Shown in pieces: positions 6,982 to 28,320 of a DNA stretch of 32,000 nt (position 1 is the stretch's first letter; every line of letters begins with the position of its first letter). A program made the position numbers and the translations under genes. The stretch comes from an uncultured bacterium. GTDB lineage: Bacteria; Margulisbacteria; WOR-1; CAVSGV01. Below the pieces are notes generated by a model, which was not told the origin of the DNA, did not search any database, and saw nothing but the letters and a program-made list of their open reading frames with translations. Location of the stretch: NCBI GenBank assembly GCA_963699255.1, contig OY969425.1:810001-842000 (forward strand). Reading direction: 5' to 3'.

Positions 6982-6995
6982 TATTGGACCGTTAA

Positions 6996-7301: not shown

Positions 7302-7346
7302 AAAAACACCTCCCTTTTAATTGTTCAAATGATAACCACTTTTATC

Positions 7347-7355: not shown

Positions 7356-7389
7356 AATCCCCCCCATACTTAATAGTATGCAAACGATA

Positions 7390-9180: not shown

Positions 9181-10052
9181 TGGCGGAGTATAACTATCTT
9201 TATCCGATCAAGCTCTCTGGCGCTGCCGCCGGATCCTGAAACGATGCTGAGTAAATAAACGCCGGAAGGCAATTCCTGGTTGAAATCCGATATGGCGTTC
9301 CAGGGAACGGAGTTTTCTCCGGCCGCTCCGCCGTTCTCTCCCGCCGGGATCGTCTTCTGCCAGGCGATCGCGCCTCTCTGGTTGAATAAATAAAGCGTTA
9401 TTGTCGCCGAGGTATTGAGCGTGTATTTTATCATTGTAGGGCCGTTGTACGGGTTGAACGGATTCGGCTCGTTGAAGGGAGTCCCGATCACCTCCACACG
9501 ATTATGGGACAGGACAGCAAACCCCTTGGCAAGGGTGCCTATCTTGCCGTAACCTGTATTTATGACCGCCACATTGCGCGCTCCGGTAACAGCGCCGGTC
9601 AGGTCAAAAGTACATTCCATGCTCGTTGAACTTTCGATCGTGACCGTTGTTCCGTCAATGTCCGTCAGGCTTGGGCCGGTGAGTCTGGCTGTAGCGTCTG
9701 AGGAAATATTCCAGCCGTTAATGATCACCCTGTATGACGTGTAATTATACCCGGTCGCCGGTTTGATGGCTTTGACCACGGGCGTTTCAGCCGTTGCTGC
9801 AGCGCCTGTGCCGTAAACTATGCCCAGGAACCTGCTTTCCAGCGTGTGGCTTGAGTTCGTCATTGCCTTCGGGGCGACTTCCCTCAGTTTGCCGAACAGC
9901 TTGTGGCTGGTCGATCCCATGGAAGCACCGCCAAGGTCAATGACCTCGGAGGATATCGCGTAGTCTGCGTTGGTGGCGGCAAGTGAAGCCGGTGAAGTGA
10001 AAAATAATAATATTATAAGTATTTCGATCGCATGTTTATTCACATTAAACAC
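9177..10052 (-). CDS. secreted protein with IPT/Ig-like middle part and FlgD-Ig / T9SS-type C-terminal-domain-like tail
   Basis: Signal peptide ..ILIILLFFTSPASLAATNA. The C-terminal ~90 aa follow the FlgD_ig/Por-secretion-tail pattern (NPFNPYNGPTMIKYTL..ATITLYLFNQRGAIAWQKTI...VPWN....LPSGVYLL). GTG start. Translationally coupled to the barrel gene. Confidence 0.65.
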   Translation of the reverse strand: MFNVNKHAIEILIILLFFTSPASLAATNADYAISSEVIDLGGASMGSTSHKLFGKLREVAPKAMTNSSHTLESRFLGIVYGTGAAATAETPVVKAIKPATGYNYTSYRVIINGWNISSDATARLTGPSLTDIDGTTVTIESSTSMECTFDLTGAVTGARNVAVINTGYGKIGTLAKGFAVLSHNRVEVIGTPFNEPNPFNPYNGPTMIKYTLNTSATITLYLFNQRGAIAWQKTIPAGENGGAAGENSVPWNAISDFNQELPSGVYLLSIVSGSGGSARELDRIKIVILRQ

Positions 10053-10089
10053 TTATTATTTTAGTTCCTTAATTATTTTATATGATCCT

Positions 10090-13000
10090 TTATATGATTT
10101 GAACCGCAATCCAGTTTGTTGGATGGCTTGCGGAGTTGCTGCTGTCAGTTATTTGGACGTTATTTCCGGATAAACCACAGGAGATACCTGTTGCCGTAAA
10201 TTCACTTTGGACCTTAACATGATAGGTACTGTCATAGGCATCCCAGCGACAGAAAGCCAGCCATTTTCCGATGCCAAGCGTAGCCCCATAGTCTGCTGCC
10301 GGCCCTGAGGCGGTAATTTCCCACACTTCCGGGGCAGATCCTCCTAAAGTTAGTATAGTAGTAGCGCTGGTAGCAGTTATACTGCCGGAAGTTGTATAAA
10401 ACCCCGTGGCTTTCACGCTGCCACTTACCTCTAATAACTCTCCTGGAGTGTTCGTCCCTATACCCACATTCCCGGTTTTAAATATCGCACTATATGTGCC
10501 CCCTGCTATATCAACCTCATGAGGGGTGACACTATTATAAAAGACCCCTCCCCAACCACCTGAACTGTTAGCCTGTCCCAAGATGCCCTGGCCAGCTACG
10601 GTATTCCCTGCAATTGCACCATATGTAAAGTCACCAACTGAACTTCCGTTATTAACAGTCAACTTACTTCCTGGATTCGTCGTCCCGATGCCAACATTGC
10701 CTGTACCGCCGGCATTTACAAAAATTGAAGGTACAGCGCCTTCTAGAGTGGTTACCTGCAATTTCCCCGTCGGACTTGTCGTCCCTATACCAACGCTGCC
10801 CTGCAAAAGGGTTTTTGTAATTGAGCTGTTGCCCAATACAACTGCGTTTGATGCCGTCGCCTGCGCGCTGTATCCTATTGCGATGGCGTTTGTAAGGTTG
10901 TTAACCGAAGTATTGGCGCTCTCCCCAATGAAAACGCACTGATTATTGTTATCGAGTGTTGTTCCTGAATTGAATCCGGCGCGATAACCGAACCCCACAT
11001 TGTCGCTTCCGGTAGCGTTGCTGTACAAAGCGCCGTCACCCATAGCGGTATTGTTATTTCCCGTTGTGTTCATGTCGAGCGCGGGGTTTCCGACCGCCGA
11101 GTTCCTGCCGCCGCTTGTGTTGCTTGAAAGCGCGCCGAATCCCAGTGCCGTATTGTCGAAGCCGGTGCTATTGCTTCCAAGCACGTTATATCCAACGGCG
11201 GTATTGCCGCCGACCGACGTAGAGGTACTTCCGCCGGCATTGTATCCTATGAACGTCTCTTGAAATCCTGACGTATTATCAAAATCCATATTCAACGATG
11301 AGCTTTTAACTTGTAAAGTGTTATTCGGACTCGTCGTCCCGATGCCGACCCTATTATTAGCTGGATTAACAATTAATGCGGAAGAATCCACAGTAAGATA
11401 TCCGGTAGTCGAGATATTTATGGCTGAATTCAAGTCTGATCCAACTATCGTCCCATCAAGTATCGCGTCTGAGGTTACTGAACCTGTTCCCATATTCACA
11501 GCTGTTATCGTGTTGTTCGCTATAGCATCAGAAGTAACCGAATCCGACCCCATATTCGCTGCTGTTATCGTGTTGTTCGCTATCTTCGCTCCCGTAACAT
11601 TGGCATTGAGTATCTTTGCGGTTATTACCGCGTTTGATCCTATTGCATCTGCTGTCACTGAACCTGTTCCCATATTCGTCGCATTGATGGTGTTATTGGC
11701 TATAGCATCATTAGTCACTGAGTTTGTTCCCATATTCGCCGCTGTGATCGTGTTATTCGCTATCTTCGCTCCTGTTACATTGGCATTGAGTATCTTTGCG
11801 GTTATTACCGCGTTTGATCCTATTGCATCTGCTGTCACTGAACCTGTTCCCATATTCGTCGCATTGATGGTGTTATTGGCTATAGCATCATTAGTCACTG
11901 AGTTTGTTCCCATATTCGCCGCTGTGATCGTGTTATTCGCTATCTTCGCTCCTGTTACATTGGCGTTGAGGATCTTTGCGGTTATTACCGCGTTTGATCC
12001 TATTGCATCTGCTGTTACAGATCCTGTTCCCATATTCGCCGCTGTGATCGTGTTATTCGATATGGCTCCCGTAGTTACTACTCCACTCCCAAAATATGAT
12101 GCCTGTAACTTACCGACGCCTATTGTTGGGCTTGGATATGTCCCCGTCAAATCTCCTGAAGCGCTCCCTCCGGGCGCCACTCCTGATATTGTTGTGTTCG
12201 ATGCCGCCGTTAATCTCCCATCTGCATCTACCGTATATGTGCCAACTTGTGTAGCGCTCCCGTATGTCCCCGCTGTTACTGCTGTCGATGCCAGCGCGTC
12301 AGCTGTTACTGAGTTGGTTGCCATATTCGCTGCTACAATCGTGTTGTTCGCTATCGCATCATTAGTCACTGAATCTGAACCCATCTTGGATGCTGTGATC
12401 GTGTTATTGGCTATGGCTCCCGTAGTTACTACTCCACTCCCAAAATATGATGCCTGTAACTTACCGACGCCTATTGTTGGGCTTGGATATGTCCCCGTTA
12501 AGTCTCCTGAAGCGCTTCCCCCAGGTGCTACTCCTGATATTGTGGTATTTGATGCTGCTGTTAATCTACCATCAGCACCTACTGTATAGGTGCCGACCTG
12601 TGTAGCAGAACCGTATGACCCCGCTGTTACTGCTGTCGATGCTAATGCGTCTGATGTTACTGAACCTGTTCCCATATTCACAGCTGTTATCGTATTATTA
12701 GCTATCTTCGCCCCTGTAACATTTGCATTGAGGATCTTTGCGGTTATTACGGCATTTGATCCTATTGCGTCTGATGTTACTGATCCTGTTCCCATATTTG
12801 ATGCAGCGATCGTGTTGTTCGCTATCTTCGAGTTTGTAACTGCACCGGATGCGATAGTCGGGCTTGGATATGTTCCCGTCAGATCCCCTGAAGCGCTTCC
12901 TCCCGGGGCTACTCCTGATATTGTGGTATTTGATGCTGCTGTTAATCTACCATCAGCACCTACTGTATAGGTGCCGACCTGTGTAGCAGAACCGTATGAC

Positions 13001-16000
13001 CCCGCTGTTACTGCTGTCGATGCTAATGCGTCTGATGTTACTGAACCTGTTCCCATATTCACAGCTGTTATCGTATTATTAGCTATCTTCGCCCCTGTAA
13101 CATTTGCATTGAGGATCTTTGCGGTTATTACGGCATTTGATCCTATTGCGTCTGATGTTACTGATCCTGTTCCCATATTTGATGCAGCGATCGTGTTGTT
13201 CGCTATCTTCGAGTTTGTAACTGCACCGGATGCGATAGTCGGGCTTGGATATGTTCCCGTCAGATCCCCTGAAGCGCTTCCTCCCGGGGCTACTCCTGAT
13301 ATTGTGGTATTTGATGCTGCTGTTAATCTACCATCAGCACCTACTGTATAGGTGCCGACCTGTGTAGCAGAACCGTATGACCCCGCTGTTACTGCTGTCG
13401 ATGCTAATGCGTCTGATGTTACTGAACCTGTTCCCATATTCACAGCTGTTATCGTATTATTAGCTATCTTCGCCCCTGTAACATTTGCATTGAGGATCTT
13501 TGCGGTTATTACGGCATTTGATCCTATTGCGTCTGATGTTACTGATCCTGTTCCCATATTTGATGCAGCGATCGTGTTGTTCGCTATCTTCGAGTTTGTA
13601 ACTGCACCGGATGCGATAGTCGGGCTTGGATATGTTCCCGTCAGATCCCCTGAAGCGCTTCCTCCCGGGGCTACTCCTGATATTGTTGTGTTCGATGCTG
13701 CCGTTAATCTACCGTCAGCATCTACCGTATATGTTCCCACCTGTGTCGCGCTTCCGTATGACCCTGCTGTTACTGCTGTCGATGCCAAGGCATCTGCTGT
13801 TACTGAGTTGGTTGTCATCTTTGCCGCTGTAATGGTGTTATTCGCTATCGCATCAGAAGTCACCGAGTTCGTTCCCATTTTGACCGCTGTTATGGTGTTA
13901 TTCGCTATGGCTCCTGTAGTTACCACTCCACTCCCAAAATATGATGCCTGGATCTTACCGACGCCTATTGTAGGGCTTGGATATGTTCCCGTCAGGTCTC
14001 CTGAAGCGCTTCCTCCGGGCGCCACTCCAGATATTGTTGTGTTCGATGCTGCGGTTAACCTTCCGTCTGCATCTACCGTATATGTTCCCACCTGTGTCGC
14101 GCTTCCGTATGACCCCGCTGTTACTGCTGTCGATGCCAGCGCATCTGCTGTTACTGAGTTCGTTCCCATATATGATGCTTGGATCTTACCAACGCCTATT
14201 GTAGGGCTTGGATATGTCCCCGTTAAGTCTCCTGAAGCGCTTCCTCCGGGCGCCACTCCAGATATTGTTGTGTTCGATGCTGCGGTTAATCTACCATCAG
14301 CACCTACTGTATAGGTGCCGACCTGTGTAGCAGAACCGTATGACCCCGCTGTTACTGCTGTCGATGCCAGCGCATCTGCTGTTACTGAGTTTGTTCCCAT
14401 ATTTGATGCTGTTATCGTGTTATCAGCTATCTTCGCCCCTGTAACATTTGCATTGAGGATCTTTGCGGTTATTACGGCATTTGATGCTATTGCGTCTGAT
14501 GTTACTGAGTTCGTTCCCATATATGATGCCTGGATCTTACCGACGCCTATTGTAGGGCTTGGATATGTCCCCGTTAAGTCTCCTGAAGCGCTTCCTCCGG
14601 GCGCCACTCCAGATATTGTTGTGTTCGATGCTGCGGTTAACCTTCCGTCTGCATCTACCGTATATGTTCCCACCTGTGTCGCGCTTCCGTATGACCCCGC
14701 TGTTACTGCTGTCGATGCCAGCGCATCTGCTGTTACTGAGTTCGTTCCCATATATGATGCCTGGATCTTACCAACGCCTATTGTAGGGCTTGGATATGTC
14801 CCCGTTAAGTCTCCTGAAGCGCTTCCTCCGGGCGCCACTCCAGATATTGTTGTGTTCGATGCTGCGGTTAACCTTCCGTCTGCATCTACCGTATATGTTC
14901 CCACCTGTGTCGCGCTTCCGTATGACCCCGCTGTTACTGCTGTCGATGCCAGCGCATCTGCTGTTACTGAGTTCGTTCCCATATATGATGCTTGGATCTT
15001 ACCAACGCCTATTGTAGGGCTTGGATATGTCCCCGTTAAGTCTCCTGAAGCGCTTCCTCCGGGCGCCACTCCAGATATTGTTGTGTTCGATGCTGCGGTT
15101 AACCTTCCGTCTGCATCTACCGTATATGTTCCCACCTGTGTCGCGCTTCCGTATGACCCCGCTGTTACTGCTGTCGATGCCAGCGCATCTGCTGTTACTG
15201 AGTTCGTTCCCATATATGATGCTTGGATCTTACCAACGCCTATTGTAGGGCTTGGATATGTCCCCGTTAAGTCTCCTGAAGCGCTTCCTCCGGGCGCCAC
15301 TCCAGATATTGTTGTGTTCGATGCTGCGGTTAACCTTCCGTCTGCATCTACCGTATATGTTCCCACCTGTGTCGCGCTTCCGTATGACCCCGCTGTTACT
15401 GCTGTTGATGCCAATGCGTCTGATGTTACTGAACCTGTTCCCATATTCAAAGCTGTGATCGTATTATTTGCTATCTTCGATGTCGTAACCGCGCCGGATG
15501 CGATAGTGGGATTTGGATATGTTCCTGTTAGATCCCCTCCGGCGCTTCCCGCCGGATTAATAGTAACATTTGTAGCGCCTGTTATTCTCCCATCTGCATC
15601 TACTGTTATTAAAGTAGCTTGTGTAGTAGAGCCATATGTCCCGGCGGTTACTGCTGTCGGAGCTAACGCATCTGTTGTTACTGAACCTTTTCCCATATTC
15701 AAAGCTGTGATCGTGTTGTTCGCTATGGCTCCCGAAGTTACCACGCCACTTCCAAAATATGATGCCTGGAGCTTACCTACGCCTATCGTCGGATCTGGAT
15801 ATGTCCCCGTCAGGTCTCCTCCCGCACTTCCTCCTGGGGCTACTCCTGATATAGCAACGTTTGATGCACCTGTTAATCGTCCGTCTGCATCTACCGTTAC
15901 TAACGCAGATTGTGTTGTTGATCCATATGTACCGGCCGTTACTGTTGTCGATGCTAACGCGTCTGCCGTTACCGAATTTGTTCCCATATTCGCCGCTGTG

Positions 16001-16929
16001 ATCGTATTATTCGCTATCTTCGCTCCCGTGACATTGGCATTAAGGATCTTCACTGTTGTTACCGCGTTTGATGCTATATCAGCTGCCACTATTGTTCCAT
16101 CTAAAATAGCTCCTGTAGTTACCACTCCAGTTCCGAAATATGATGCCTGTAACTTTCCGGCTCCTATCGTCGGGTTTGGATATGTTCCTGTCAGAATCTC
16201 CTCCTGCGCTTCCTCCAGGCGCTACTCCTGATATTGTGGTATTTGATGCCGCCGTCAATCTCCCGTCCGCGTCTACCGTATATGTGCCCACCTGCGTCGC
16301 GCTTCCGTATGACCCCGCTGTTACTGCTGTCGATGCCAGCGCATCAGCTGTTACCGAGTTTGTTCCCATATTTGATGCCGTGATCGTGTTGTTCGCTATG
16401 GCTCCTGAAGTGACCGCTCCTGTTGTCAGCATTGCCGCAGTTATTGAAGCATTTGAAGGCGTTCTTGTATCTGAAAGTCTTGTGTCATCAGCAGTTACCA
16501 CATGACAAGCGGATGTATCAGCAGATGGAGTTTCAAGTGAAACAACACCTTGAACTGCAGTTGTCGCTGCTGTTGAACATGTCGTCGCGGTCCCCGATAA
16601 GGTAGAATAAGCCACAGATCCAGAACAGGCGGACGATATTCCTGAAAGAGCGGCATAATTAGCAGTTAAAGCAGTGTCGGCATTTACATTCGGTTCCCAT
16701 ATGAGCAGCCCAGAACCGTCGTTCTTTAAATATGTATTTGCGGACCCTTGTAAAGACGGCCAGGTATATATAAGCCCGTTAAATTTGATGTATGCGGCAT
16801 CCAGAGTGCCGGTAACCGTTATAGGCCCATTTACTGCTTCAGGGAACCGGGTCCCGGGCCTCCAGTTTGGATCGCCAGAGCCGGCACGCTCATCAAAATA
16901 AGGATCGCCCATATCACTGACCTTTTCAT
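10090..16929 (-). CDS. giant (~2,280 codon) secreted tail-fibre-like repeat protein, split into three reading frames by two 1-nt indels (pseudogene, phase variant or assembly error)
   Basis: Three consecutive pieces make one gene: a 32-codon ORF from ATG 16929 not listed in the ORF track (MKRSVIWAILILMSVPALA, SD aggaagggg), the 277-aa ORF 16079..16912, and the 2011-aa ORF 10090..16125. The signal peptide joins FPEAVNGPITVTG if 1 nt is added near 16845-16850. The repeat consensus GGDLTGTYPNPTIGAGKLQASYF is restored by deleting one A at 16195-16196. The body has more than a dozen GDLTGTYP(S/N)PTI modules. The C-terminal part has Hep_Hag/YadA-head-like NTA(V/L)G repeats and four VGIGTTxPxxxLxV motifs typical of tail-fibre-domain proteins. 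Confidence 0.8.
11461..12060 (-). repeat. coding tandem repeat, 180-bp unit (3.3 copies) made of three 60-bp subunits
   Basis: Sequence lines 11641-11760 and 11821-11940 are identical. 11761-11820 versus 11941-12000 differ at 2 nt. Every 60-nt block begins tat.gcatc and contains ttcccatattc. Encodes 60-aa units of IANNTITAANMGTNSVTNDA / IANNTINATNMGTGSVTADA / IGSNAVITAKILNANVTGAK. Confidence 0.9.
12527..13686 (-). repeat. coding tandem repeat, 381-bp unit, about 3.04 perfectly identical copies
   Basis: The antisense ORFs 12590..12970, 12971..13351 and the start of 13352.. are identical, as are the corresponding sequence lines. Identity begins at gctactcctg (12527) and ends near 13686. Confidence 0.9.
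13940..15405 (-). repeat. coding tandem repeats, 231-bp unit: ~1.5 copies at 13940-14290 and ~3.9 near-identical copies at 14504-15405
   Basis: Antisense ORFs at 14559, 14790, 15021 and 15252 are spaced exactly 231 nt apart and are virtually identical. The unit encodes 77 aa: GVAPGGSASGDLTGTYPSPTIGVGKIQASYMGTNSVTADALASTAVTAGSYGSATQVGTYTVDADGRLTAASNTTIS. Confidence 0.9.
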
Positions 16930-17056
16930 TGGCATCCCCTTCCTTTTAAAGATCCGGGCTTGCTATATTTGTAATCATATTGCTCCCGGCATGAGCAGCC
17001 AGCAGATATCCGCTCCTGAGGAGTAAGGCAGGTTTCGCTCTTGGAGAAGAGAGATC

Positions 17057-17998
17057 TTATTGCTTGGGCTGTATGCTTATCTTGCCAGCATCCGCCCAGT
17101 CGCTCTCAGCTCCCAGGCCAGTTATTATCCCGCCGCTCACATTTATTGTCCGGACCTTTTTCTGGAGCGTGCCATCCGCATTGAGACGGATATCGGTAAC
17201 CTGAACATAATTTTCAGAAATACCATCTGCTCCTTTTTGATTGAATCCGGAGTCAGATCTTACAGCGCCTGAAACGTTCAACCCGCCCCCCTGAAGGACC
17301 ACCCGTCCATTGCCGGATGGTATCAGGGTGATATTTTGGTCCGACCCGCCGGCGGAAAATGTCAAGGCACCGGAACCTGAGATAGAACCATTGTCACTTC
17401 CGGTCCCGCCGTGAGCCGCGCCCAAGATCCCGGAAGTGAGATCCGCGGTCGAGTGCGTATGCCCGCTTAAGGAAACCGCGACGCCGGCTTGCGTGATGGT
17501 CTTAGCATCCAGAGGCCCGGCAACGGTCAGATCATTAGAGCGCAGGGTCGGGACTTCCAGCGACTTGCTGATTATCGCACTATCGGTCTTTAATGTTTTA
17601 GAGCGCAGGTCCGCGGTCTCCATCCACCCATTGGAGATTATCCCGGTATCAACCTTTAATGTTTTCGCGGCATTATCCCAAAGTAAACCGGGGTCTCCCG
17701 CAAATGAATTATCCAGATTGAACTGGAGAGCGCCATTCGACCCTCCAGGGACTATCTCCTTTTGCCATGAGAGTTTTCCTTTGCCTTCATTTTTCAAATA
17801 GGTCCCTGATTCCTGAGTAGAGGGCCAGTTGTAGCTTATCCGGTTGAAAACCGTCAACCCTACAACCTTTATTGCCCCGCTTACCTCCAGTGTTCCTCTT
17901 ATTCCCTCCCTGGCACTGATCCCCGGACCTCCGAACGGAACTGCAAATACCGGTACGCTCAACAACAGGACCATTGCTACTATTAACAGCTTTTTCAT
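17057..17998 (-). CDS. secreted tail-fibre-like protein (313 aa) with HxH / GGTG motif
   Basis: Signal peptide MKKLLIVAMVLLLSVPVFA. N-terminal module shared with the neighbouring genes (ISYNWPSTQESGTYLKNEGKGKLSW). GHTHSTADLTSGILGAAHGGTG resembles the HTH..DIT.G.L...GGTG motif I recall from phage tail-fibre proteins. SD AGGGAGGA upstream. Confidence 0.75.
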   Translation of the reverse strand: MKKLLIVAMVLLLSVPVFAVPFGGPGISAREGIRGTLEVSGAIKVVGLTVFNRISYNWPSTQESGTYLKNEGKGKLSWQKEIVPGGSNGALQFNLDNSFAGDPGLLWDNAAKTLKVDTGIISNGWMETADLRSKTLKTDSAIISKSLEVPTLRSNDLTVAGPLDAKTITQAGVAVSLSGHTHSTADLTSGILGAAHGGTGSDNGSISGSGALTFSAGGSDQNITLIPSGNGRVVLQGGGLNVSGAVRSDSGFNQKGADGISENYVQVTDIRLNADGTLQKKVRTINVSGGIITGLGAESDWADAGKISIQPKQ

Positions 17999-18024
17999 TG
18001 CTTATCCTCCCTTTCTATTTTCCC

Positions 18025-20532
18025 TTAATTATCTGTGCGCCCTATTTCTATCCAGCGGCCATGTGCGCCAAGAGAGGCCACATAGATAAGCTGCAGAATA
18101 TCACCTTTACCCAAGGTGAAAGGAGTCGCCGCAGAAAGTTGAAGGACATCTAATGTGTCATTATTGAATGTGACGCACTTCAGATCATCCGTCCCTATCA
18201 ATACAAGCATCTGGCCATCTGAGCCGGCGGCTATGGGAGGATTGGCCGTAATGGTTACCGGAACATCTTTCCCTCGTATCAAGAGCACCTTTTTGTTCAG
18301 CATATCCTTTGTGATGCCGCTGACATCTATATCGGTGAAGTCTGACGGCAGATAGCTGACGCTTCCCCTGACTTCCATGGTTGAATTAATTATTACTTCT
18401 CCGCTCACAGAGAGTGAATCTATGGTGCCTATCCCGGTAATGTTCGGGAATGATCCTGTCGCGAGATCCGCGTTGACGATGGTCCCGTTCAGTATCGCAT
18501 CTGATGTGACAGAACCCGTTCCCATATATGACGCCTGGATCTTGCCTGCGCCTATCGTCGGGTTTGGATATGTTCCCGTCAGATCTCCTCCAGCGCTTCC
18601 TCCCGGCGCTACTCCTGATATTGTCACATTTGTTGCGCCTGTTAATCTTCCATCCGCATCTACCGTCACTAATGTAGCTTGTGTTGCAGAACCATATGTC
18701 CCCGCTGTTACCGTTGTCGATGCCAGCGCATCCGCTGTTACTGAGTTTGTTCCCATATATGATGCCTGGATCTTACCGACGCCTATTGTCGGGTTTGGAT
18801 ATGTTCCCGTCAGATCCCCTCCAGCGCTTCCTCCCGGAGCTACTCCTGCTATGGTGGTATTTGATGCCGCCGTTAATCTTCCATCAGCACCTACCGTATA
18901 TACGCCAACCTGTGTCGCGCTACCGTATGACCCAGCTGTTACTGCTGTCGGAGCTAACGCATCTGTTGTTACTGAACCTGTTCCCATGTTAGATGCAGTT
19001 ATCGTATTGTTCGCTATCTTCGAGGTCGTAACCGCAGCGGATGCGATGGTCGGGTTTGGATACGTTCCCGTCAGGTCCCCTCCAGCGCTTCCTCCCGGAG
19101 CTACTCCTGCTATGGTGGTATTTGATGCCGCCGTTAATCTTCCATCAGCACCTACCGTATATACGCCAACTTGTGTTGCGCTACCGTATGACCCAGCTGT
19201 TACTGCTGTCGGAGCTAACGCATCTGTTGTTACTGAACCTGTTCCCATATTAGATGCAGTTATCGTATTGTTCGCTATCTTCGAGTTCGTAACCGCAGCG
19301 GATGCGATGGTCGGGTTTGGATATGTTCCTGTCAGGTCCCCTCCTGCGCTTCCTCCCGGAGCTACTCCTGCTATGGTGGTATTTGATGCCGCCGTTAATC
19401 TTCCATCAGCATCTACCGTATATGTGCCGACCTGTGTCGCGCTACCGTATGACCCAGCTGTTACTGCTGTCGGAGCTAACGCATCTGTTGTTACTGAACC
19501 TGTTCCCATGTTAGATGCCGTGATCGTGTTGTTCGCTATCTTCGAGGTCGTAACCGCAGCGGATGCGATGGTCGGGTTTGGATATGTTCCTGTCAGATCT
19601 CCGCCAGCGCTTCCTGCCGGCGCTACTCCTGATATCGTCACGTTAGATGCTGCCGTTAATCTTCCGTCTGCATCTACCGTATATGTGCCAACTTGTGTTG
19701 CGCTACCGTATGACCCAGCTGTTACTGCTGTCGGAGCCAATGCGTCCGCTGTTACTGAGTTCGTTCCCATGTTAGACGCGGTTATCGTATTGTTCGCTAT
19801 CTTCGAGGTCGTAACCGCAGCGGATGCGATTGTCGGATTTGGATATGTCCCTGTCAGGTCCCCTCCTGCGCTTCCTGTGCAGGTTGATGCAGTTCCCGCC
19901 AGGATAGCATAATTTGCATTAGTAGCATTATCAGCATTGGTAGCAGTATCAGCGCTAGTAGCATGACCTGCATTAGTAGCGCTATCAGCACTGGTAGCAT
20001 GGCCTGCATTAGTAGCACTATCAGCACTGGTAGCGTGACCTGCATTAGTAGCAGAATCAGCACTGGTAGCAGAATCAGCATGCCCGCCATTAGCAGTTCT
20101 TGCATTTGACATTCTGGTATCATTAGCAGTAACCACATTATAAGCATTTGTGTTAGATGAACTATCTTCAAGTGAAACGCCGCCGATCGTGGTCGTGTTT
20201 CCCGAGAGTAATTCGATCGTGCCTGTAGTAGTTATAGTCCCTCCGGAGAGTCCGGTGCCGATGTCGATCCGAGTTATTGTCCCGCCACTGACCGTTTCCC
20301 AGGTGAGCGACCCGGCGCCATTATTCGTCAAGTAAGTATTCGCGGCTCCCTGTAAAGAAGGCCAATGGTAAATGACCCCGTTCAACTTGGTATCTATCAC
20401 ATCAATTGTACTGGTAACCGTTAAAGGCCCCTTCACCGCTTCAGGAAATTCGGGCCCTCCACCACCAAGCTGGACCGCTAAAGCCGAGGAACTCATTATT
20501 CCCAAAAACAAAACAACTAACCACTTTTTCAT
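18025..20532 (-). CDS. secreted tail-fibre-like repeat protein (835 aa)
   Basis: Signal peptide MKKWLVVLFLGIMSSSALA. N-terminal module FPEAVKGPLTVTSTIDV..LNGVIYHWPSLQGAANTYLTNNGAGSLTWE. 36-bp His/Ser/Ala repeats. Six to seven GGDLTGTYPNPTI modules. The C-terminal ~95-aa domain ends IEIGRTDN and is shared with the 872-aa protein. SD AAGGGGG upstream. Confidence 0.8.
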   Translation of the reverse strand: MKKWLVVLFLGIMSSSALAVQLGGGGPEFPEAVKGPLTVTSTIDVIDTKLNGVIYHWPSLQGAANTYLTNNGAGSLTWETVSGGTITRIDIGTGLSGGTITTTGTIELLSGNTTTIGGVSLEDSSSNTNAYNVVTANDTRMSNARTANGGHADSATSADSATNAGHATSADSATNAGHATSADSATNAGHATSADTATNADNATNANYAILAGTASTCTGSAGGDLTGTYPNPTIASAAVTTSKIANNTITASNMGTNSVTADALAPTAVTAGSYGSATQVGTYTVDADGRLTAASNVTISGVAPAGSAGGDLTGTYPNPTIASAAVTTSKIANNTITASNMGTGSVTTDALAPTAVTAGSYGSATQVGTYTVDADGRLTAASNTTIAGVAPGGSAGGDLTGTYPNPTIASAAVTNSKIANNTITASNMGTGSVTTDALAPTAVTAGSYGSATQVGVYTVGADGRLTAASNTTIAGVAPGGSAGGDLTGTYPNPTIASAAVTTSKIANNTITASNMGTGSVTTDALAPTAVTAGSYGSATQVGVYTVGADGRLTAASNTTIAGVAPGGSAGGDLTGTYPNPTIGVGKIQASYMGTNSVTADALASTTVTAGTYGSATQATLVTVDADGRLTGATNVTISGVAPGGSAGGDLTGTYPNPTIGAGKIQASYMGTGSVTSDAILNGTIVNADLATGSFPNITGIGTIDSLSVSGEVIINSTMEVRGSVSYLPSDFTDIDVSGITKDMLNKKVLLIRGKDVPVTITANPPIAAGSDGQMLVLIGTDDLKCVTFNNDTLDVLQLSAATPFTLGKGDILQLIYVASLGAHGRWIEIGRTDN
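18540..19880 (-). repeat. coding tandem repeats, 231-bp then 261-bp units (about 5 copies, diverged a few percent)
   Basis: cgggtttggata.gttcc anchors recur at about 18551, 18790, 19051, 19312, 19573 and 19834. Antisense ORFs at 19041 and 19302 are 261 nt apart. The 87-aa unit is GGSAGGDLTGTYPNPTIASAAVTTSKIANNTITASNMGTGSVTTDALAPTAVTAGSYGSATQVG.YTV.ADGRLTAASNTTIAGVAP. Confidence 0.85.
19961..20068 (-). repeat. coding 36-bp tandem repeat x3 (NAGHATSADSAT)
   Basis: gcatgacctgcattagtagcgctatcagcactggta (19961-19996) is repeated at 19997-20032 and 20033-20068 with 2-5 substitutions. Degenerate copies flank the array. Confidence 0.85.
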
Positions 20533-20551
20533 TTTCGCTCAACCCCCTTTT

Positions 20552-23170
20552 TTAATTATCTGTCCTGCTGATTTCATACCAGGCATTATCAACCTGGTCA
20601 TATATACATATCATAGTATCTTTATTGCCAAAGGTAAAGGGTGAATTGCCGGATAGTATCAAGTAATTCCCAGGGTTGAACTTTACGGTATTTATATTGT
20701 CAGTGCCCCGCAGGATTATCATTTGCCCGTCCTCTCCAGGCGCGATCGGAGGGTCCGCCGTCACAACCACCGGCCCGCCATTTCCCGCGATGCGGATCAA
20801 TTTCTTATTCAACATTCCCGCTGTCAGACCCGAACTTGCATTAATATAATTTATCGATGACGACGGATAGATCACTTTTCCATCAGCCTTAAATGTACCA
20901 CCTACTTCTAGGTTCCCCCCCGCTTCTATGGTGACCGTGCCCACCGTAAGGTTGCCGGTCATGGTGTCGCCTGCCCTGAGGACCGCGGTCTCTGCACTGA
21001 TCGCCGAACCAGCTGATATTGCGTAATCCGCTGTTGCCGCATTCGTAGCTGTGACTCCCGATAAATTCGATCCGTTGCCAAAAAATGCTGCCGCAGTTAC
21101 AACACCAGTTGTGCTAATATTGATATTAGTCATAAGAGCGCTACCCGCTATCTTATTCGTGGCCGTGTCAACCTTGCTCCAGTCAACCCCTGATATTTGC
21201 GAATTAGATATACCTAAAGCTTTTACCTCAAGTGATTGATCACCATTCAGATCAACAGTGATATTATCGTATTTGTTTGTTGCAGCTTCACCAGTTGGAC
21301 CGATCGGGCCTTGAATACCTTGAATGCCCTGAATACCTTGGATACCTTGTGGACCTGCTTCTCCAGTCAATCCGATGGGACCTTGAGGTCCGATAGCTCC
21401 GGTCTCGCCAGTCGGACCGATGGGACCTTGAATTCCTTGAATGCCCTGGATCCCTTGAATGCCTTGCGGACCTTGAGGCCCTGCTTCTCCAGTTGATCCG
21501 ATAGGACCCTCAGGACCAACAGCACCAGTCTCACCGGTCAGACCGATTGGCCCTTGAATTCCTTGGATACCTTGTATGCCTTGCGGACCTTGAAGACCTG
21601 CTTCGCCAGTTAATCCGATAGGACCTTCAGGACCGACAGCTCCAGTCTCACCAGTTGGACCGATCGGACCTTGAATTCCTTGGATGCCCTGAATACCTTG
21701 GATACCTTGTGGACCTGCTTCTCCAGTTAATCCGATAGGACCTTGAGGTCCGACTGCGCCAGTCTCACCGGTCGGACCGATCGGACCTTGAATTCCCTGA
21801 ATACCTTGGATACCTTGTGGACCTTGAGGACCGACTGCACCAGTCTCTCCGGTCAGACCGATCGGACCTTGAATTCCTTGGATACCTTGTATGCCTTGCG
21901 GACCTTGAGGACCAGCTTCTCCCGTTACTATTGCCCAAACCGGATTTTGAGATGCGCCTTGAGTCTCTAAGTAGTACCCGCTGGTTCCTGCTGTAAGTCT
22001 GGCCCATTTCGATCCATCATAATACATCACATCACCTTGCGACGCGGCATCCGTTGTTACAACTGTTGACGATAACCTTGCATTGTCGATCGTCCCTGAA
22101 GTGATATTCGTTGCGTCCAGGTTGGTCAGTAAGTTGCCTCCTCCGTCTATGGACTTGTTAGTTAATGTTTGCGCGTCCGTTGTCGTTACGACCACGCTAG
22201 TATCGATCGTTAAAGTCCCTGTTATCATTATCGGACCTCCAAGCAATCCTCTGCTTGTATTTACCTGAGTAACAGTTCCGGTCCCTCCGGAGTTCACCCA
22301 GGTGAATTGATCCGATCCGCCGTAGCTTAGAACCTGCCCGTTGGCCGGCGAATTTGTGGCGTTCAGTTTTGGTTCAATGATCGAATCATTTGCTATCGCA
22401 TCCGAGGTTACTGATCCGGTCGCCATTTTCGATGCTGTGATCCCTCCATTAGCAACATCGAGCGTTCCCGAACTTGTTATCGGACCCCCTGTCAATGACG
22501 GTCCTGTATTGACAGACGTAACGGTTCCGCTGCCGCCTCCTATTGCAGAGATCTCGATCGTTTGCCCGCTTTGCAAGAGAGAGACATTCGTTCCGCCTTT
22601 AAGCGTTACTGTCCCAGTTAAAGCCGCCGCGTCGGATGAAGATATTCCTGTAACGGAAGCCGGAATAACTGAGGAAGAAAGTTTCCCCATTCCATCGGTC
22701 GTTGGAATGATGTTTGCCCCTGAAGCAGATATGGGATATCCCGCGGCTTTTGTCGAATCGTCGGCTTGAAGCGTCCTGTACGCGTGTGCCGCGCTAGCTA
22801 TCTGGATCCTTGGCGTCATTTCTCCGCCCGGCGGGACTTCAACTCCCAGCCACCTGTCCGTACCATCAAATACACTTGGTTGGAAAGCTATTATCGTGCT
22901 GAAGACACCATTGCTATCGGGGGTGAGAGTTTCTACGGATGTCCCGTTCGTGACAGGGACGCCGCCGCTTGCCTGGCTGTACATTCTGAAAGTAAAAGTT
23001 GTGGAAGTAGTCGCTGGGGTCCCGTCTAAATATGTCAGTCTGCCTTCATAACCTATTATTTGCGGTATCGCCGCGTAACATATCCCCGTTATGCCTATCC
23101 GGCTGCCGTCAGGAAAGCCCGGCAGGTCCGCCAGAGGCAGGCTGAAAGCGGACACCATTAATATGAACAC
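20552..23170 (-). CDS. secreted collagen-like / tail-fibre-like protein (872 aa; true start may be ATT 23194)
   Basis: The ORF begins mid signal peptide ([14 protein letters not shown]). In frame upstream, ATT ATT AAG AAG lies 7 nt after GAGGTG, which would give (M)[21 protein letters not shown]. Motifs: QTLTNKSI, 71 Gly-X-Y triplets, [23 protein letters not shown]. The C-terminal domain ends YEISRTDN. Confidence 0.8.
21284..21922 (-). repeat. collagen-like triple-helix region: 71 uninterrupted Gly-X-Y triplets (639 nt)
   Basis: Counted from the translation: [30 protein letters not shown] ... GPI GPT GEA, with no interruption. Higher-order unit of about 13-14 triplets. The DNA copies are diverged, unlike the perfect repeats of the giant gene. 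Confidence 0.9.
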
Positions 23171-23351
23171 TGAAACAAAAATCTTCTTAATAATAAAATA
23201 ACACCTCAGTTGTTCATCGTGTCATAGTCCCGCTACCTTATTATTGGAATATAATGTGATGCGGGATCCCGCCTTTGGCGGTGATTAACCGTGTCATTTC
23301 TTCTTTATTATACCAGAGAATTTTGCATATTCAAAGGGGGTAAAAGCCGGA

Positions 23352-24752
23352 TCATGATGACAGGGTTTTATCTATGGCTTTAGCGGCTTTTTTCCCGGCC
23401 CCCATGGCTTCGATGACGGTAGCCGCTCCGGATACTATATCCCCGCCGGCATATACATATGTAATGGAAGTCTGCCCTGTCACGGGATCCGCTATGATCC
23501 CGCCCCATTTTTCCATCTTAAGGCCATTTATCATCCCTGGCAAAAGCGGGTTCGGGTTATTCCCGATAGCTACTATCACAGTGTCAACATCGATCAAGGA
23601 TTCGGATCCTTTAACAGGAATGGGGCGCCGTCTTCCGGAATCATCCGGTTCTCCGAGTTCCATTTTCAGGATCTCCATCTGTGAAACCCATCCGTCCTTT
23701 CCTATGATCCGCGTAGGATTTGAAAGCAGCCTGAATTTAACCCCTTCTTCTTTCGCATGCTCTATCTCTTCCGCCCTTGCCGGCATTTCCTCATTGCTTC
23801 TACGGTAAACGATAGTTACTTCATCCGCTCCAAGCCTCAGCGACACCCTTGCGGAATCCATAGCAACGTTCCCCGCGCCGACCACGACCACTTTTTTGCC
23901 GATCTTTACCGGGGTCAAGTATTCAGGGAACAGGTAGGCTTTCATCAGGTTCACTCTGGTCAGGTATTCATTCGCGGAATAAACACCCCCTAGATTTTCG
24001 CCGGGCACCTTCAAGAACTGCGGCAGTCCCGCCCCGGCGCCGATGAAGACCGCCTTGTACCCCTGGGACAAAAGATCGTCGATCGTCAATGTCCTCCCTA
24101 TCAGGGTATTTATCTTAACATCAACGCCGAGATTCTTTATCCCGTCGCTCTCAAATTGAACTATTTTTTTGGGCAGCCTGAACTCGGGAATGCCGTAGGT
24201 CAAAACCCCGCCGGTCTCATGCAGGGACTCGAACATGGTCACCTGATATCCCTTTTTTGCAAGGTCCCCCGCGCAGGTCAGGCCGGCTGGTCCAGATCCC
24301 ACTACAGCGATTTTTGCCTTGTCGTTTTTTTTCACATCTCGCACTTGCCCCGCACGAAGTTGCGGGGTCTCACATCTCACATCTCTATTTTTCATCTCCC
24401 AATCCGCCGCGAATCTCTCCAGCCTGCCGATAGCTATCGGATTGTTCTTCCTTGCGAACACGCAGACTTTTTCGCACTGGTCTTCCTGAGGACACACCCT
24501 TCCGCAGATAGCCGGAAGATTGTTTTTCTCCTTCAATTTCTTTATGGCTTCATCGAATTTGCCGTCAGCAATATAAGCCACGAACGCGGGGATATCAATT
24601 TCGACCGGGCAACCGGCCATGCACGTAGGTTTTTTGCACTGTATGCAGCGTTTTGCCTCGGCTACCGCCTGCTCCGGCGTGTAGCCAAGCGCCACTTCGT
24701 TAAAGTTATTAACCCTTTCTCTCGGGTTTTGTTCGGACATAGGTTGACGCAT
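23352..24752 (-). CDS. nfnB: NfnB / SudA / GltD-like subunit: NADPH-dependent FAD oxidoreductase with two [4Fe-4S] clusters
   Basis: N-terminal Cys clusters CIQCKKPTCMAGCPV and CGRVCPQEDQCEKVC. Dinucleotide fold KIAVVGSGPAGLTCAGDLAKKGYQVTMFE. Second fold KVVVVGAGNVAMDSAR. C-terminal YAGGDIVSGAATVIEAMGAGKKAA. Adjacent to the small NfnA-like subunit. Confidence 0.8.
   Translation of the reverse strand: MRQPMSEQNPRERVNNFNEVALGYTPEQAVAEAKRCIQCKKPTCMAGCPVEIDIPAFVAYIADGKFDEAIKKLKEKNNLPAICGRVCPQEDQCEKVCVFARKNNPIAIGRLERFAADWEMKNRDVRCETPQLRAGQVRDVKKNDKAKIAVVGSGPAGLTCAGDLAKKGYQVTMFESLHETGGVLTYGIPEFRLPKKIVQFESDGIKNLGVDVKINTLIGRTLTIDDLLSQGYKAVFIGAGAGLPQFLKVPGENLGGVYSANEYLTRVNLMKAYLFPEYLTPVKIGKKVVVVGAGNVAMDSARVSLRLGADEVTIVYRRSNEEMPARAEEIEHAKEEGVKFRLLSNPTRIIGKDGWVSQMEILKMELGEPDDSGRRRPIPVKGSESLIDVDTVIVAIGNNPNPLLPGMINGLKMEKWGGIIADPVTGQTSITYVYAGGDIVSGAATVIEAMGAGKKAAKAIDKTLSS
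24339..24371 (-). repeat. 33-nt GC hairpin element, in-frame inside nfnB (copy 1)
   Basis: tcgcacttg-ccccgca-cgaagt-tgcgggg-tctc, a 7-bp stem with a 6-nt loop. Translated as ETPQLRAGQVR. Bracketed by the direct repeat cacatctc at 24333-24340 and at 24371-24378 / 24378-24385. Confidence 0.75.
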
Positions 24753-24765
24753 ATACTAAGCCCCT

Positions 24766-24869
24766 AATTTCCAATTACCAATAACAAATGTCAAATTAAT
24801 TACCAATTATGCAATACCCAATTGGGAATTGACCATTGGGCATTAATTTGTAATTTGACATTGGAAATT
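24766..24869. repeat. ~105-nt imperfect nested palindrome of CCAATT/AATTGG words in the nfnA-nfnB spacer
   Basis: aatgtcaaatta (24787-24798) pairs with taatttgacatt (24851-24862). aatttccaat (24766-24775) pairs with attggaaatt (24860-24869). The central perfect palindrome cccaattggg is at 24817-24826. Confidence 0.7.
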
Positions 24870-24881
24870 GGTCATTTGTCA

Positions 24882-25730
24882 TTATTTGCATCTCTCGCAC
24901 TTCTCCGAAGCTATCTTCTCTTTGTCTTTATACTGACCCAGCCTTGTCATAAGTTCATCGTAATCCACCTGATGGGCGTCGAATTCCGGCCCGTCAACAC
25001 AGGTGAACCTGACCGCCCCACCGACCGTAACTCGGCACACTCCGCACATTCCCGTTGCGTCAAGCATGATAGGGTTCAAACTTACGATCGTCTTTATGCC
25101 GTAAGGCCGGGTTACGCCGGCAACCGCTTTCATCATCTGGACCGGACCTATCGCGATGACCCTGTCGATCTTTGTCCCTTTACCGATCAGGTCCTTTAAC
25201 TCATCCGACACAAAACCTTTTCTCCCGCAGCTTCCGTCGTCGGTCGTTATGTAAAACTCGTCGCTGTAAGCCTGATTCTCTTTCCTGAATATAAGCGCGG
25301 TCTCGCATCTTGAGCCGGTAATGGTGATGACCTTATTCCCCTTTGTCTTCATTGCTTTCACGATCGGATGGACCACCGCGATCCCTACGCCTCCTCCGAC
25401 ACATACAACCGTCCCAAAATTCTCAACTTCCGTCGGATGGCCAAGAGGCCCGAGGATGTCCAATATCGCACTTGCCCCGCGCCCAGTCGCGGGGTCTCCC
25501 GCCTCTAATTTCCCAAGCATTTTCGTGCTTGCTCCAACCTCCTGGAAGACCAAAGTGATGCGGTTCGTGTTATCGGTATCGGCGATCGTGAGCGGCGTTC
25601 TTTCGCCTTTTTCATCGATGCGCAGCGTCACGAACTGGCCGGCTTTTGCGTGTTGCGCGATAAGCGGGGCTTCCACATCGATCCTGACTATATTTTCATA
25701 GAGTCTTTCTTTGTGAAGTATCTTGAACAT
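24882..25730 (-). CDS. nfnA: NfnA / SudB-like subunit: ferredoxin-NADP reductase-type FAD protein with C-terminal [2Fe-2S] site
   Basis: FNR-like fold: GQFVTLRIDEKGERTPLTIAD, GPLGHP, VVCVGGGVGIAVVHPI. C-terminal Cys motif ATGMCGVCRV...FTCVDGPEF. Same organisation as PyrK/SudB/NfnA family members. Confidence 0.8.
   Translation of the reverse strand: MFKILHKERLYENIVRIDVEAPLIAQHAKAGQFVTLRIDEKGERTPLTIADTDNTNRITLVFQEVGASTKMLGKLEAGDPATGRGASAILDILGPLGHPTEVENFGTVVCVGGGVGIAVVHPIVKAMKTKGNKVITITGSRCETALIFRKENQAYSDEFYITTDDGSCGRKGFVSDELKDLIGKGTKIDRVIAIGPVQMMKAVAGVTRPYGIKTIVSLNPIMLDATGMCGVCRVTVGGAVRFTCVDGPEFDAHQVDYDELMTRLGQYKDKEKIASEKCERCK
25466..25498 (-). repeat. 33-nt GC hairpin element, in-frame inside nfnA (copy 2)
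   Basis: tcgcacttg-ccccgcg-cccagt-cgcgggg-tctc. 29 of 33 nt are identical to the copy at 24339-24371. Translated in a different frame as (G)DPATGRGASA. Confidence 0.75.
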
Positions 25731-25895: not shown

Positions 25896-25910
25896 TGCTA
25901 AAATAACATC

Positions 25911-26920
25911 ATGCCGCAGCTAAGGCAAAATCCCGCGACAAAAGAATGGGTGATAATCTCAACCGAACGCTCAAAGCGCCCGGAGGAATTCCAGGTGCCG
26001 GAAGAGAAGGACGGCCCGGAGGTCATAAAGAACTGTCCTTTCTGCGCCGGCAATGAGCACCTGACCCCCGACGAGCTTCTTGCGTTCAGGACTTACGAAA
26101 CAAAACCGGGGACCCGGGCTGGTGGATAAGGGTGGTCCCGAACAAGTTCCCCGCTTTGATCCCCACAGGTAATGTTAAAAGGATGCAGTTCGATGAATTT
26201 TTACGCTATATGGACGGAGTGGGCAGCCACGAAATAGTGATAGAAAGTCCCGATCATAACACGTCAATGGCTACAATGGACCAAAAACAGGTCGAAGAAA
26301 TATTCCTTGCATATAAGGAAAGATATTCCGTGCTCAAAAAAGATACAAGGTTCGAGATGATCCTTATATTCAAGAACCACGGAAGGGAAGCCGGAACGTC
26401 GATAAGACACCCTCATTCGCAGATCATAGCCATGCCGATAACTCCGATCCATATCAGGCATTATATTGAAGAAGCTATGAGGTATTTTGACGATAATGGT
26501 GAATGCGTTTACTGTGAGGTACTGAAAAAAGAACAGAAAAAAGAAAGGATGATCCTTGAAACCGATAACTTTGTCGCCTTTGTTCCTTTCGCCGCCAGGT
26601 CTCCTTTCGAGATATGGGTCCTGCCCAGGAAGCATTATTCGTCATACGAATGCATCTCAGCCGCGGACACGAAAGAGCTCGGGTTTGTAATGAAACAGGT
26701 CCTGGGTAAATTGTACAAGTCATTAAAAGACCCGGCATATAATTTCATGATACTTTCGGCCCCCTGCCATGAGGAGGACCTTGAATATTTCCACTGGCAT
26801 ATACAGATAGTCCCCCGCGTCGCCCAGGTAGCCGGCTTCGAGATGGGTTCCGGTATCTATATCAACACCGTGATCCCCGAAGAAGCGGCCAAATTCCTGA
26901 GAGAAACAAAAGCAGAGTGA
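25911..26920 (+). CDS. galT: galactose-1-phosphate uridylyltransferase (GalT, HIT superfamily), interrupted by a 1-nt frameshift
   Basis: ORF 25911..26129 has the zinc motif CPFCAGNEHLTP. ORF 26132..26920 has VPNKFPAL and the active-site HPHSQI (HxHxQ). In the downstream frame the residues before the GTG read GWWIRVVPNKFPAL, the expected family continuation. The frames join within aaaaccggggacccgggc (26101-26118). Confidence 0.8.
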
Positions 26921-27651: not shown

Positions 27652-28196
27652 TAGCTCCATACGTTGTTATTTTGATCTTTTCTTCCGCTATTGGCGGAGC
27701 GGTGATCGGCTGTGTTTTATTCTTTTTTGCCAGCCGCGTTCTTCTTAGCCAAAAGATGTCGAGAAGGGTCGAACTTGCCCAGTTCTCCCAGGAAGAAGCT
27801 GAGTCCCTGCTGAAAAAAAGAGGGTTCAGGATAATCGACAAACAAAAACGCGCGGATGTAGTGACTTACATCGATGGAAAACCAAATCTCGGTTTCGTTC
27901 AGGCCGATTTTATCGTGGAGAAGAACGGGAGGAAATATGTGGCGGAAGTCAAAGCCGGGGAGCTTGTCTCGGATCCGACAGAACCTTCCACCAGAAGGCA
28001 GCTGCTTGAATACAAGTTCGCATACAAGCCTTACGAGATACTGCTGGTGAACATGCTTGACAGAACGATCCATAAGATCGATTTTGAAGCCCCTTCCTAT
28101 GCGGAAGACAAAATATTCCGGTTGATACTTACGGCGTTAATTGTTATTATTGTTATTGGAGTCATTTGGGTTTTCGCGTCAATTAAGATCCTTTAA
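27648..28196 (+). CDS. membrane-anchored protein with PD-(D/E)xK nuclease-like core, unknown function
   Basis: TM helices at both ends (IAPYVVILIFSSAIGGAVIGCVLFFFA and FRLILTALIVIIVIGVIWVFASI). The soluble core has E...ADFIVEKNGRKYVAEVK, that is D-x12-E-x-K as in YraN-type restriction-endonuclease folds. The GTG start overlaps the tlyA stop, with GGAGGA 6 nt upstream. Confidence 0.5.
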   Translation: MIAPYVVILIFSSAIGGAVIGCVLFFFASRVLLSQKMSRRVELAQFSQEEAESLLKKRGFRIIDKQKRADVVTYIDGKPNLGFVQADFIVEKNGRKYVAEVKAGELVSDPTEPSTRRQLLEYKFAYKPYEILLVNMLDRTIHKIDFEAPSYAEDKIFRLILTALIVIIVIGVIWVFASIKIL

Positions 28197-28202
28197 AAAT
28201 AA

Positions 28203-28288
28203 ACAATTAACAATGACACAATTAACAACATGGAAATATTATCATAATATGTCGCCAATGGCGACACCGCGTTGTTAATTGTTAATTG
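28203..28288. repeat. intergenic palindromic element of the CAATTAACAA family with a central GC hairpin, followed by a 12-bp tandem duplication
   Basis: caattaacaa occurs at 28204-28213 and 28219-28228. Its reverse complement ttgttaattg occurs at 28272-28281 and 28279-28288. The central hairpin tgtcgcc-aat-ggcgaca is at 28250-28266. aattgtaaatta x2 lies at 28292-28315, directly before ATG 28321. Confidence 0.75.
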
Positions 28289-28320
28289 AGAAATTGTAAA
28301 TTAAATTGTAAATTAAATTA

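Follow-up and report, generated by a model that had tools for sequence, protein, structure and literature searches.

Rickettsia palindromic elements (RPEs), familiar from the work of Ogata et al., measure roughly 100-150 bp and are scattered in many copies over Rickettsia genomes, and one RPE can be read in different frames. Repetitive extragenic palindromes (REPs) are single imperfect palindromes of 20-40 bp, some of which lie wholly inside open reading frames (ORFs); they would be transposed without duplication of the target by an HUH enzyme, the REP-associated tyrosine transposase (RAYT) (PMC3733652). The GC clusters of yeast mitochondria (e.g. GC42) are short GC-rich mobile hairpins with substitutions concentrated in the loops (PMC4478555). 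Apart from mobile elements, template-switch or quasipalindrome events and microhomology events copy a short nearby tract via few homologous bases, and can create or repair perfect stems, with apparent compensatory pairs among the outcomes (PMC8794818, PMC7202029). Here, we describe two copies of a 24-nt GC-rich hairpin that are inserted in frame in nfnB and nfnA, adjacent genes of one operon, in a 32-kb stretch of DNA (contig OY969425.1, positions 810,001 to 842,000; hereafter the window) from an uncultured bacterium of the Margulisbacteria. On the present evidence we prefer a single insertion in nfnB and a subsequent short-homology copy into nfnA, to which we assign a probability of about one half, to a dispersed selfish family.

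An earlier note on this DNA had reported a 33-nt element in both genes, with a hairpin, a compensatory stem substitution and different reading frames. Re-reading of the sequence gave exactly the coordinates, sequences and identity reported there, with both copies in the same orientation and 29 of 33 positions identical. In a repeat search (family D19) the similarity of the two copies reached 50 nt at 78% identity. A search with the consensus, allowing eight free central positions and up to three mismatches, found only these two places in the window, and the 33-nt consensus was absent from all of 100 dinucleotide-preserving shuffles. Both copies are predicted to fold, as RNA and as DNA and on either strand, into a 7-bp stem with a 6-nt loop (Table 1); in copy 1 the outermost stem pair is supplied by a flanking target base. 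The four differences between the copies comprise two loop bases and one covarying pair, A-T versus G-C, which leaves the stem intact. The codon phases differ as well, since nfnB reads ETPQLRAGQVR and nfnA reads DPATGRGASA. With translation in two different frames, what the copies have in common is a feature of the nucleic acid and not of the protein.

The limits of the inserts were read from the DNA of seven relatives (about 40 kb in total) and from alignments of NfnA with 17 relatives of 68-91% identity (A1) and of NfnB (A2). In the nearest relative, L124 (87-90% nucleotide identity to the window), the empty nfnB site consists of AGATGTGAGAC directly followed by GCGAGATGTGAAG, where the window reads AGATGTGAGAC, the insert CCCGCAACTTCGTGCGGGGCAAGT and GCGAGATGTGAAA; to either side of the insert, 11 nt or more of the empty site are identical to the window. 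Judged by this comparison, the nfnB insertion is exactly 24 nt long, with unique boundaries and without target-site duplication, and it interrupts the codon ACG after its second base. For nfnA the net gain relative to the relatives is likewise exactly 24 nt, located between the codons GAC and GCG, and the eight residues PATGRGAS are missing in 17 of 17 NfnA relatives. The NfnB insert lies in a linker that varies in length from protein to protein, and the nearest NfnB relative (P0122) reads RCET, a gap of eight residues and RDVK where the window reads RCETPQLRAGQVRDVK. Homologues are thus shorter at both positions, as the earlier note had stated, and the inserts are lineage-specific, while the size given there had to be reduced from 33 to 24 nt. 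That the residues are ancestral and conserved at the protein level, which would have spoken against an insertion, does not hold, as the relatives lack the eight residues in NfnA and the nfnB site of L124 is empty.

An assembly or sequencing artefact is hardly credible as the source of the inserts. The neighbouring galT-like gene is frameshifted, which could be a homopolymer error and would point in this direction, but each insert adds an exact multiple of three bases to an ORF that is intact, four positions distinguish the two copies, and both of them occur, identical to the window, in an independent Logan assembly (L001) of run ERR10755942.

Table 1. Positions in the window of the inserts, their flanks and hairpins, and the surrounding features.
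Feature	Position	Strand	Remarks
33-nt copy 1	24339-24371	+ strand coordinates	in nfnB; tcgcacttgccccgcacgaagttgcggggtctc
33-nt copy 2	25466-25498	+ strand coordinates	in nfnA; tcgcacttgccccgcgcccagtcgcggggtctc
Copy 1, 24-nt insertion in nfnB	24343..24366	minus	coding strand CCCGCAACTTCGTGCGGGGCAAGT; encodes P130-V137 (PQLRAGQV)
Copy 2, 24-nt insertion in nfnA	25470..25493	minus	coding strand CCCGCGACTGGGCGCGGGGCAAGT; encodes P80-S87 (PATGRGAS)
Hairpin of copy 1, 7-bp stem CCCCGCA/TGCGGGG, 6-nt loop	24348..24367	either	RNA -13.8 to -15.1, DNA -8.3 to -8.6 kcal/mol
Hairpin of copy 2, 7-bp stem CCCCGCG/CGCGGGG, 6-nt loop	25475..25494	either	RNA -16.5 to -18.3, DNA -9.4 to -9.6 kcal/mol
Left flank GAGAC of copy 1	24367..24371	minus	ancestral in nfnB; GAGAC and GCGA contiguous in L124
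Right flank GCGA of copy 1	24339-24342	minus	ancestral in nfnB (L124)
Left flank GAGAC of copy 2	25494..25498	minus	matches nfnB, unlike nfnA empty sites
Right flank GCGA of copy 2	25466-25469	minus	matches nfnB, unlike nfnA empty sites
'cacatctc' linker units (coding GAGATGT/GAGATGTG)	24371..24385, also 24333-24340	minus	same units in L124
nfnB-like gene, 466 aa, intact	23352..24752	minus	ORF; Pfam; T. maritima structure match
nfnA-like gene, 282 aa, intact	24882..25730	minus	ORF; Pfam PF10418, PF00175; structure matches
AT-rich palindromic spacer nfnA/nfnB, 129 nt	24753..24881		inverted repeats I4, I13; unrelated to the 24-nt element

Each 33-nt copy is made up of the 24-nt insert with GAGAC as its left and GCGA as its right flank on the coding strand. 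At the filled nfnA site the sequence is GGAGAC, the 24 nt and GCGATA, whereas the empty nfnA sites of six relatives (GAGAT followed by GTGA or TCGA) read GGAGAT/GTGATA in L124 and GGAGAT/TCGATA in L002, L003, L004, L160 and L161. The C and the GC beside the nfnA insert differ from every nfnA empty site and equal nfnB, and were probably co-copied with the insert. Because these flanking bases are ancestral in nfnB and absent from the nfnA empty sites, we infer that the nfnA copy was most likely derived from nfnB. Copying between the subunit genes had been listed in the earlier note as a scenario contrary to its own reading; the nfnB-type flanks at the nfnA copy point to just this scenario. At third codon positions the window and L124 have diverged by 24-28%, and the two copies differ by 17% (4/24), which fits a duplication after the split from L124 and subsequent near-neutral drift. 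Sites that match GAGACGCGA at seven or more of nine bases occur at chance frequency (48 observed versus 43 expected on the same strand); the nfnA site is therefore ordinary microhomology and no rare recognition site. Since in addition the one other place in the window with a perfect GAGACGCGA, at 4617-4625 within proC, is unoccupied, a strict target-recognition model is not needed.

In the scenario that we favour, a 24-nt GC-rich hairpin, CCCGCR-N6-YGCGGG-GCAAGT on the coding strand, would have entered nfnB between GAGAC and GCGA in this lineage only, without target duplication, and would have hit the hypervariable interdomain linker. Later, nfnA would have received a copy of the slightly larger tract C + 24 nt + GC, 1,127 nt upstream and with its orientation unchanged, at a loop-coding acceptor that would have shared only GAGA (left) and GA (right) with the donor; a replication template switch or short-tract ectopic conversion is the likely mechanism. 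Both events would have been tolerated, as they added a multiple of three bases and no stop codon in flexible loops, with the unrelated 8-residue peptides PQLRAGQV and PATGRGAS as mere passengers, and the hairpins would then have diverged at 4 of 24 positions with the stem intact. The occurrence of only two copies in the window, in adjacent genes of one operon and in the same orientation, supports local copying, and there are documented cases in which hairpins and compensatory pairs arose by template switching (PMC8794818).

Several observations weigh against this scenario. Donor-like sequence for the first 24 nt was not found in the window, where shared 9-10-mers occur at chance level. The 17% divergence, the compensatory pair and the restriction of the other changes to the loop are also expected from independent insertions of diverged family masters. 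L159 and L002 have GC-rich inserts of other sequence at the corresponding place in nfnB, which hints at a site-directed process, and the nfnA ancestor of the window may already have read GAC GCG, as an alanine is found there in some relatives. Finally, the copy count covers 32 kb of a source genome of 1.77 Mb, which may contain more copies; the copy number in the source genome is the key quantity for choosing between the readings. Two candidate donors were considered and rejected: a 13-mer at 17689 (CGGGGTCTCCCGC) has a chance expectation of about 0.08 by our own estimate and lacks the hairpin, and a 10-mer at 24893 belongs to the ancestral sequence that encodes EKCERCK.

The main rival to local copying, although we consider it less likely, is a genome-wide family of tiny REP- or RPE-like mobile hairpins that inserted independently in trans, e.g. 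by a HUH/RAYT-type single-strand transposase. Such hairpins would enter beside GAGAC or at sites resembling GAGAC^GCGA, leaving the target unduplicated, and selection would spare only in-frame copies in permissive loops. A hairpin with a conserved 6-nt tail, clean insertion without duplication, the equal left flank of both copies and changes confined to the loop and one compensatory pair all agree with such a family, and intragenic REPs are documented (PMC3733652). The right flank GCGA, however, is also common to both copies, which is unpredicted by HUH-type insertion, the nfnA flanks are unlike all nfnA empty sites, the perfect target at 4617 is empty, both known copies lie in one operon, the GTAG/CGTC tag is missing and no transposase gene is present among the window ORFs. 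Both copies are open in all six frames, which agrees with such a family, but the same is seen in 21% of composition-matched shuffles, and open frames were therefore rejected as a signature of the element.

A third copy, which a mobile family would predict, was found neither in the window nor in the roughly 40 kb from the seven relatives when up to 6 substitutions in 24 were allowed. In a scan of Joint Genome Institute (JGI) metagenomes with GACCCCGC-N8-GCGGGGCAAGTG (20 specified bases) seven matches were obtained, all in unrelated contexts on contigs of 56-63% G+C, and a viral scan returned unrelated hairpins only. A scan of the genome collection with CCCCGC-N8-GCGGGGCAAGT (17 specified bases) gave at least 119 loci and was too permissive to inform on copy number; the matches listed were all unrelated, being terminator-like hairpins and other repeat families, and they included neither a hairpin flanked by GAGAC/GCGA nor any locus of the source genome. 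Of the claim of a selfish multi-copy family, the in-frame hairpin inserts are real, while further copies were not seen in the window, in the relatives' DNA or in the metagenome scan.

The genome-collection scan also matched two repeat families that contain its pattern and are unrelated to the 24-nt element. A tandem array with a period of 108 nt is located at 3483-3830 of L045 (Acidobacteriota metagenome-assembled genome (MAG) contig CAWKHL010000006.1), and a dispersed repeat, ACAACGGAGGAACCCCGCTGGAAGGCGCGGGGCAAGTCGGAGAAGCGGAT, occurs in two Anaerolineales MAGs (H67_698 and H51_515). The loci of the repeat matches (L005, L053, L072, L015, L055, L057, L071 and L102) are mostly from Anaerolineales MAGs.

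Other palindromes were found at the NfnB linker of the relatives, where structured inserts were located at codons ~120-150. L159 (P0127) carries a different GC hairpin of 21 nt after the same GAGAC and before GCGAGATG. The linker of L002 (P0123) is 21 nt longer and GC-rich, and L003 lacks this stretch though it is near-identical elsewhere. L160 (P0130) contains an in-frame palindrome of ~85 nt with a CCCCTCTCCATGAAATGGAGAGGGG core (free energy -44 kcal/mol), and L161 (P0136) contains two strong hairpins (free energy -40 kcal/mol). The in-frame palindromes of L159, L160 and L161 in or near this spot speak for mobility, and from these sequences the NfnB linker looks like a recurrent landing pad or a recombination hot spot. 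Common descent of the 24-nt element with the inserts of L159 and L002 was considered and is not claimed here, as the similarity is not significant (p 0.07-0.8). A minimal, autonomous-looking mobile unit of 24-27 nt, smaller than any described bacterial repeat element, that inserts without duplication at GAGAC^GCGA-like sites and uses the NfnB linker as the recurrent landing pad of the clade, appears doubtful to us.

AT-rich palindromic repeats are a second class of palindromes in this genome, and one of them, the 129-nt spacer, is inserted between nfnA and nfnB, which likewise agrees with a mobile family. The spacer is absent from L002, L003 and L004, in which nfnA and nfnB abut or overlap (ATGA). 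Related AT-rich palindromes lie near 5785 and 28192; the repeats are ~110-130 nt long (24753-24881, ~5770-5890 and 28185-28315), share motifs such as AATTACACAATTAACAATGA and, by their sequence, look like an intergenic insertion family that resembles MITEs (transposable elements of the miniature inverted-repeat type). A search of Rfam with the AT-rich palindromes gave merely weak, chance-level matches to plant miRNA hairpins. At the same nfnA-nfnB junction L161 has a different intergenic palindrome of ~100 nt (1636-1735, ATTGTCATTCTGAGCGAAGCGAAGAATC...GATTCTTCGCCCCGACAAATCGGGGCTCAGAATGATACA). Small palindromes clearly accumulate in these genomes, which keeps a mobile family alive as an explanation.

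The stem of the 24-nt element was kept in both copies. When four random substitutions were placed in 24 nt, all seven pairs survived in ~4% and a compensatory double change arose in ~1.2% of simulations. The covariation is weak evidence of selection on the structure, with a single pair and p ~0.01-0.04, and replication template switching within hairpins can yield paired compensatory changes without selection (PMC8794818). The stem may have been kept by selection against stem-breaking changes or by hairpin-templated correction. The earlier note had proposed that conservation acts on the nucleic-acid structure; the shared sequence is indeed a nucleic-acid feature, but selection on the structure is weakly backed by the one pair. 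In a further explanation, which we regard as improbable, the hairpins would act in cis, in the nfnAB transcript or DNA, and be under selection for this role; they might bind a protein, stabilise the mRNA or pause translation and would have been kept in both cistrons because they coordinate expression of the subunits. Two copies in one operon with stable predicted folds and a stem kept by a compensatory change are in line with such a role, but the structures are absent from every relative, including one with the same operon at 87-90% nucleotide identity, Rfam holds no family that matches the hairpins, on the mRNA strand one of the folds has a z-score of only -0.87, and the covarying pair can be accounted for by mutational correction (PMC8794818).

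Repeats of 'cacatctc' around the nfnB hairpin had been taken for direct repeats through which it could be excised in frame. They lie at the coordinates given for them, but are also present around the empty site of L124 (GAGATGCGAGATGTGAGACGCGAGATGTGAAG), and were therefore rejected as a target-site duplication or an excision substrate. As the units occur in the empty site too, they are ancestral 7-nt linker units and no insertion scars. A CGTCTC type IIS recognition sequence in the empty nfnB site was dropped as unsupported numerology.

The two genes are correctly named nfnA and nfnB, as supported by Pfam and by matches to solved Nfn subunits. The nfnB product contains PF14691 (Fer4_20, 9.7e-44) and PF07992 (Pyr_redox_2, 2.4e-37) and matches T. 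maritima 4ylf_B from end to end (E 7.5e-169); by these matches it is the predicted large subunit of an NADH-dependent ferredoxin:NADP oxidoreductase. The nfnA product, a small PyrK-like subunit, likewise matches solved subunits over its whole length, namely 5jca_S (E 3.4e-100) and 4ylf_A (E 8.4e-73). In alignments, the solved T. maritima subunits have a gap at both insert sites, and the P. furiosus structures have a clear gap at the NfnA site and only a 3-residue gap in the NfnB linker. AlphaFold models of moderate quality (mean predicted local distance difference test (pLDDT) score 73 for NfnA and 64 for NfnB) place NfnA residues 80-87 within a coil (74-87) with a helix on one side and a strand on the other, and NfnB residues 130-137 in a coil (124-140, pLDDT <50) that connects the Fe-S domain to the Rossmann fold. 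According to these models, both inserts fall in permissive flexible loops, where the enzyme would tolerate them, and both inserted loops would be exposed on the surface. Selection of new surface loops in both subunits, e.g. at the interface, with an incidental similarity of the DNA, could account for two inserts of eight residues each in loops of one complex. The loops are predicted to be disordered, however, the peptides are unrelated, and 20 of 24 identical DNA positions cannot come from convergence on different peptides; because the frames differ, this adaptation at the protein level is effectively refuted and carries a very small probability.

Further features of the window lie outside the inserts. 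Between the ORFs at 3037-3894 and 4486-5343, two adjacent perfect 7-bp hairpins, CCGCGAC-TGAA-GTCGCGG and CCGAGAC-TTTA-GTCTCGG, are located at 4156-4200, one of which has a chance-level 10-mer in common with copy 2. The galT-like gene (GalP_UDP_transf/HIT, ~25900-26920, + strand) is frameshifted relative to orthologues of 335-336 aa: the N-terminal ~70 residues are read in one frame, which ends ...ETKPGTRAGG followed by a stop codon, and the remainder (GDPGWWIRVV...) in another. The same split is present in the Logan contig L001 (gene calls of 236 and 108 aa), and the gene is either a pseudogene or affected by a homopolymer sequencing error. Between yggS/proC and nfnB, ~16.8 kb (~6554-23352) are present in the window and only ~0.8 kb in L002. 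This region encodes giant repetitive surface-type proteins, namely DUF5907-repeat proteins of 2011 and 835 aa, a collagen-triple-helix-repeat protein of 872 aa and an SLH-domain protein; its DNA contains extensive internal tandem repeats with periods of 231-381 nt, and it looks like a lineage-specific island.

If local copying is true, the locus provides a clean natural example of a short hairpin tract that was duplicated between genes by microhomology and tolerated in frame. Residues in protein loops would then originate in events on the DNA that take no account of the protein, and a single compensatory pair should be taken with caution as proof of function. If a mobile family is true, few insertion units known from bacteria would be as small as the 24-nt hairpin, and the NfnB linker would be a useful reporter site for palindrome invasion in uncultivated lineages. 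For annotation, under either explanation, lineage-specific inserts of 7-30 residues in proteins of this clade can be translated palindromes and not functional motifs.

Compared with the known systems, the inserts resemble RPEs (cited in PMC3733652) in that palindromic DNA lies in frame in functional-looking genes and adds a passenger peptide at a permissive site. They form hairpins, lie in intact genes and are absent from the orthologues. The likeness to RPEs that had been claimed accordingly holds for the in-frame, tolerated behaviour and fails for the size: the element here has 24 nt, far too few against 100-150 bp, and is known from two copies in one operon of an unrelated uncultivated lineage. 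In size it falls in the class of REPs, with 24 nt and a stem-loop of 20 nt in a single palindrome. REPs are high-copy and mostly extragenic; the two copies seen in the window are both genic. GTAG, CGTC and their complements are absent from both 33-mers, the insertion cuts through the CGTC of the empty nfnB site (TCGCGTCTC), and a RAYT (Y1/HUH transposase) gene was not found among the ORFs of the window. MITEs differ by their length of 70-300 bp, terminal inverted repeats and target-site duplication, whereas the element here has 24 nt, no terminal repeats and no duplication. The lack of duplication and the equal left flank GAGAC recall IS200/IS605-type (HUH) elements, which insert 3' of a fixed tetra- or pentanucleotide and have a hairpin at the element end, but here the right flank is common as well and the final C of GAGAC in nfnA is not ancestral. 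Yeast GC clusters are mitochondrial and mostly intergenic, with an AG target-site duplication and many copies. In classical template switches the donor is the opposite arm or the opposite strand, no more than tens of bases off; the donor proposed here is directly oriented and 1.1 kb distant, and the window showed no template for the first insert. Set beside these systems, the 24-nt inserts are a real, if modest, case of a known phenomenon, small palindromic DNA that is tolerated inside genes.

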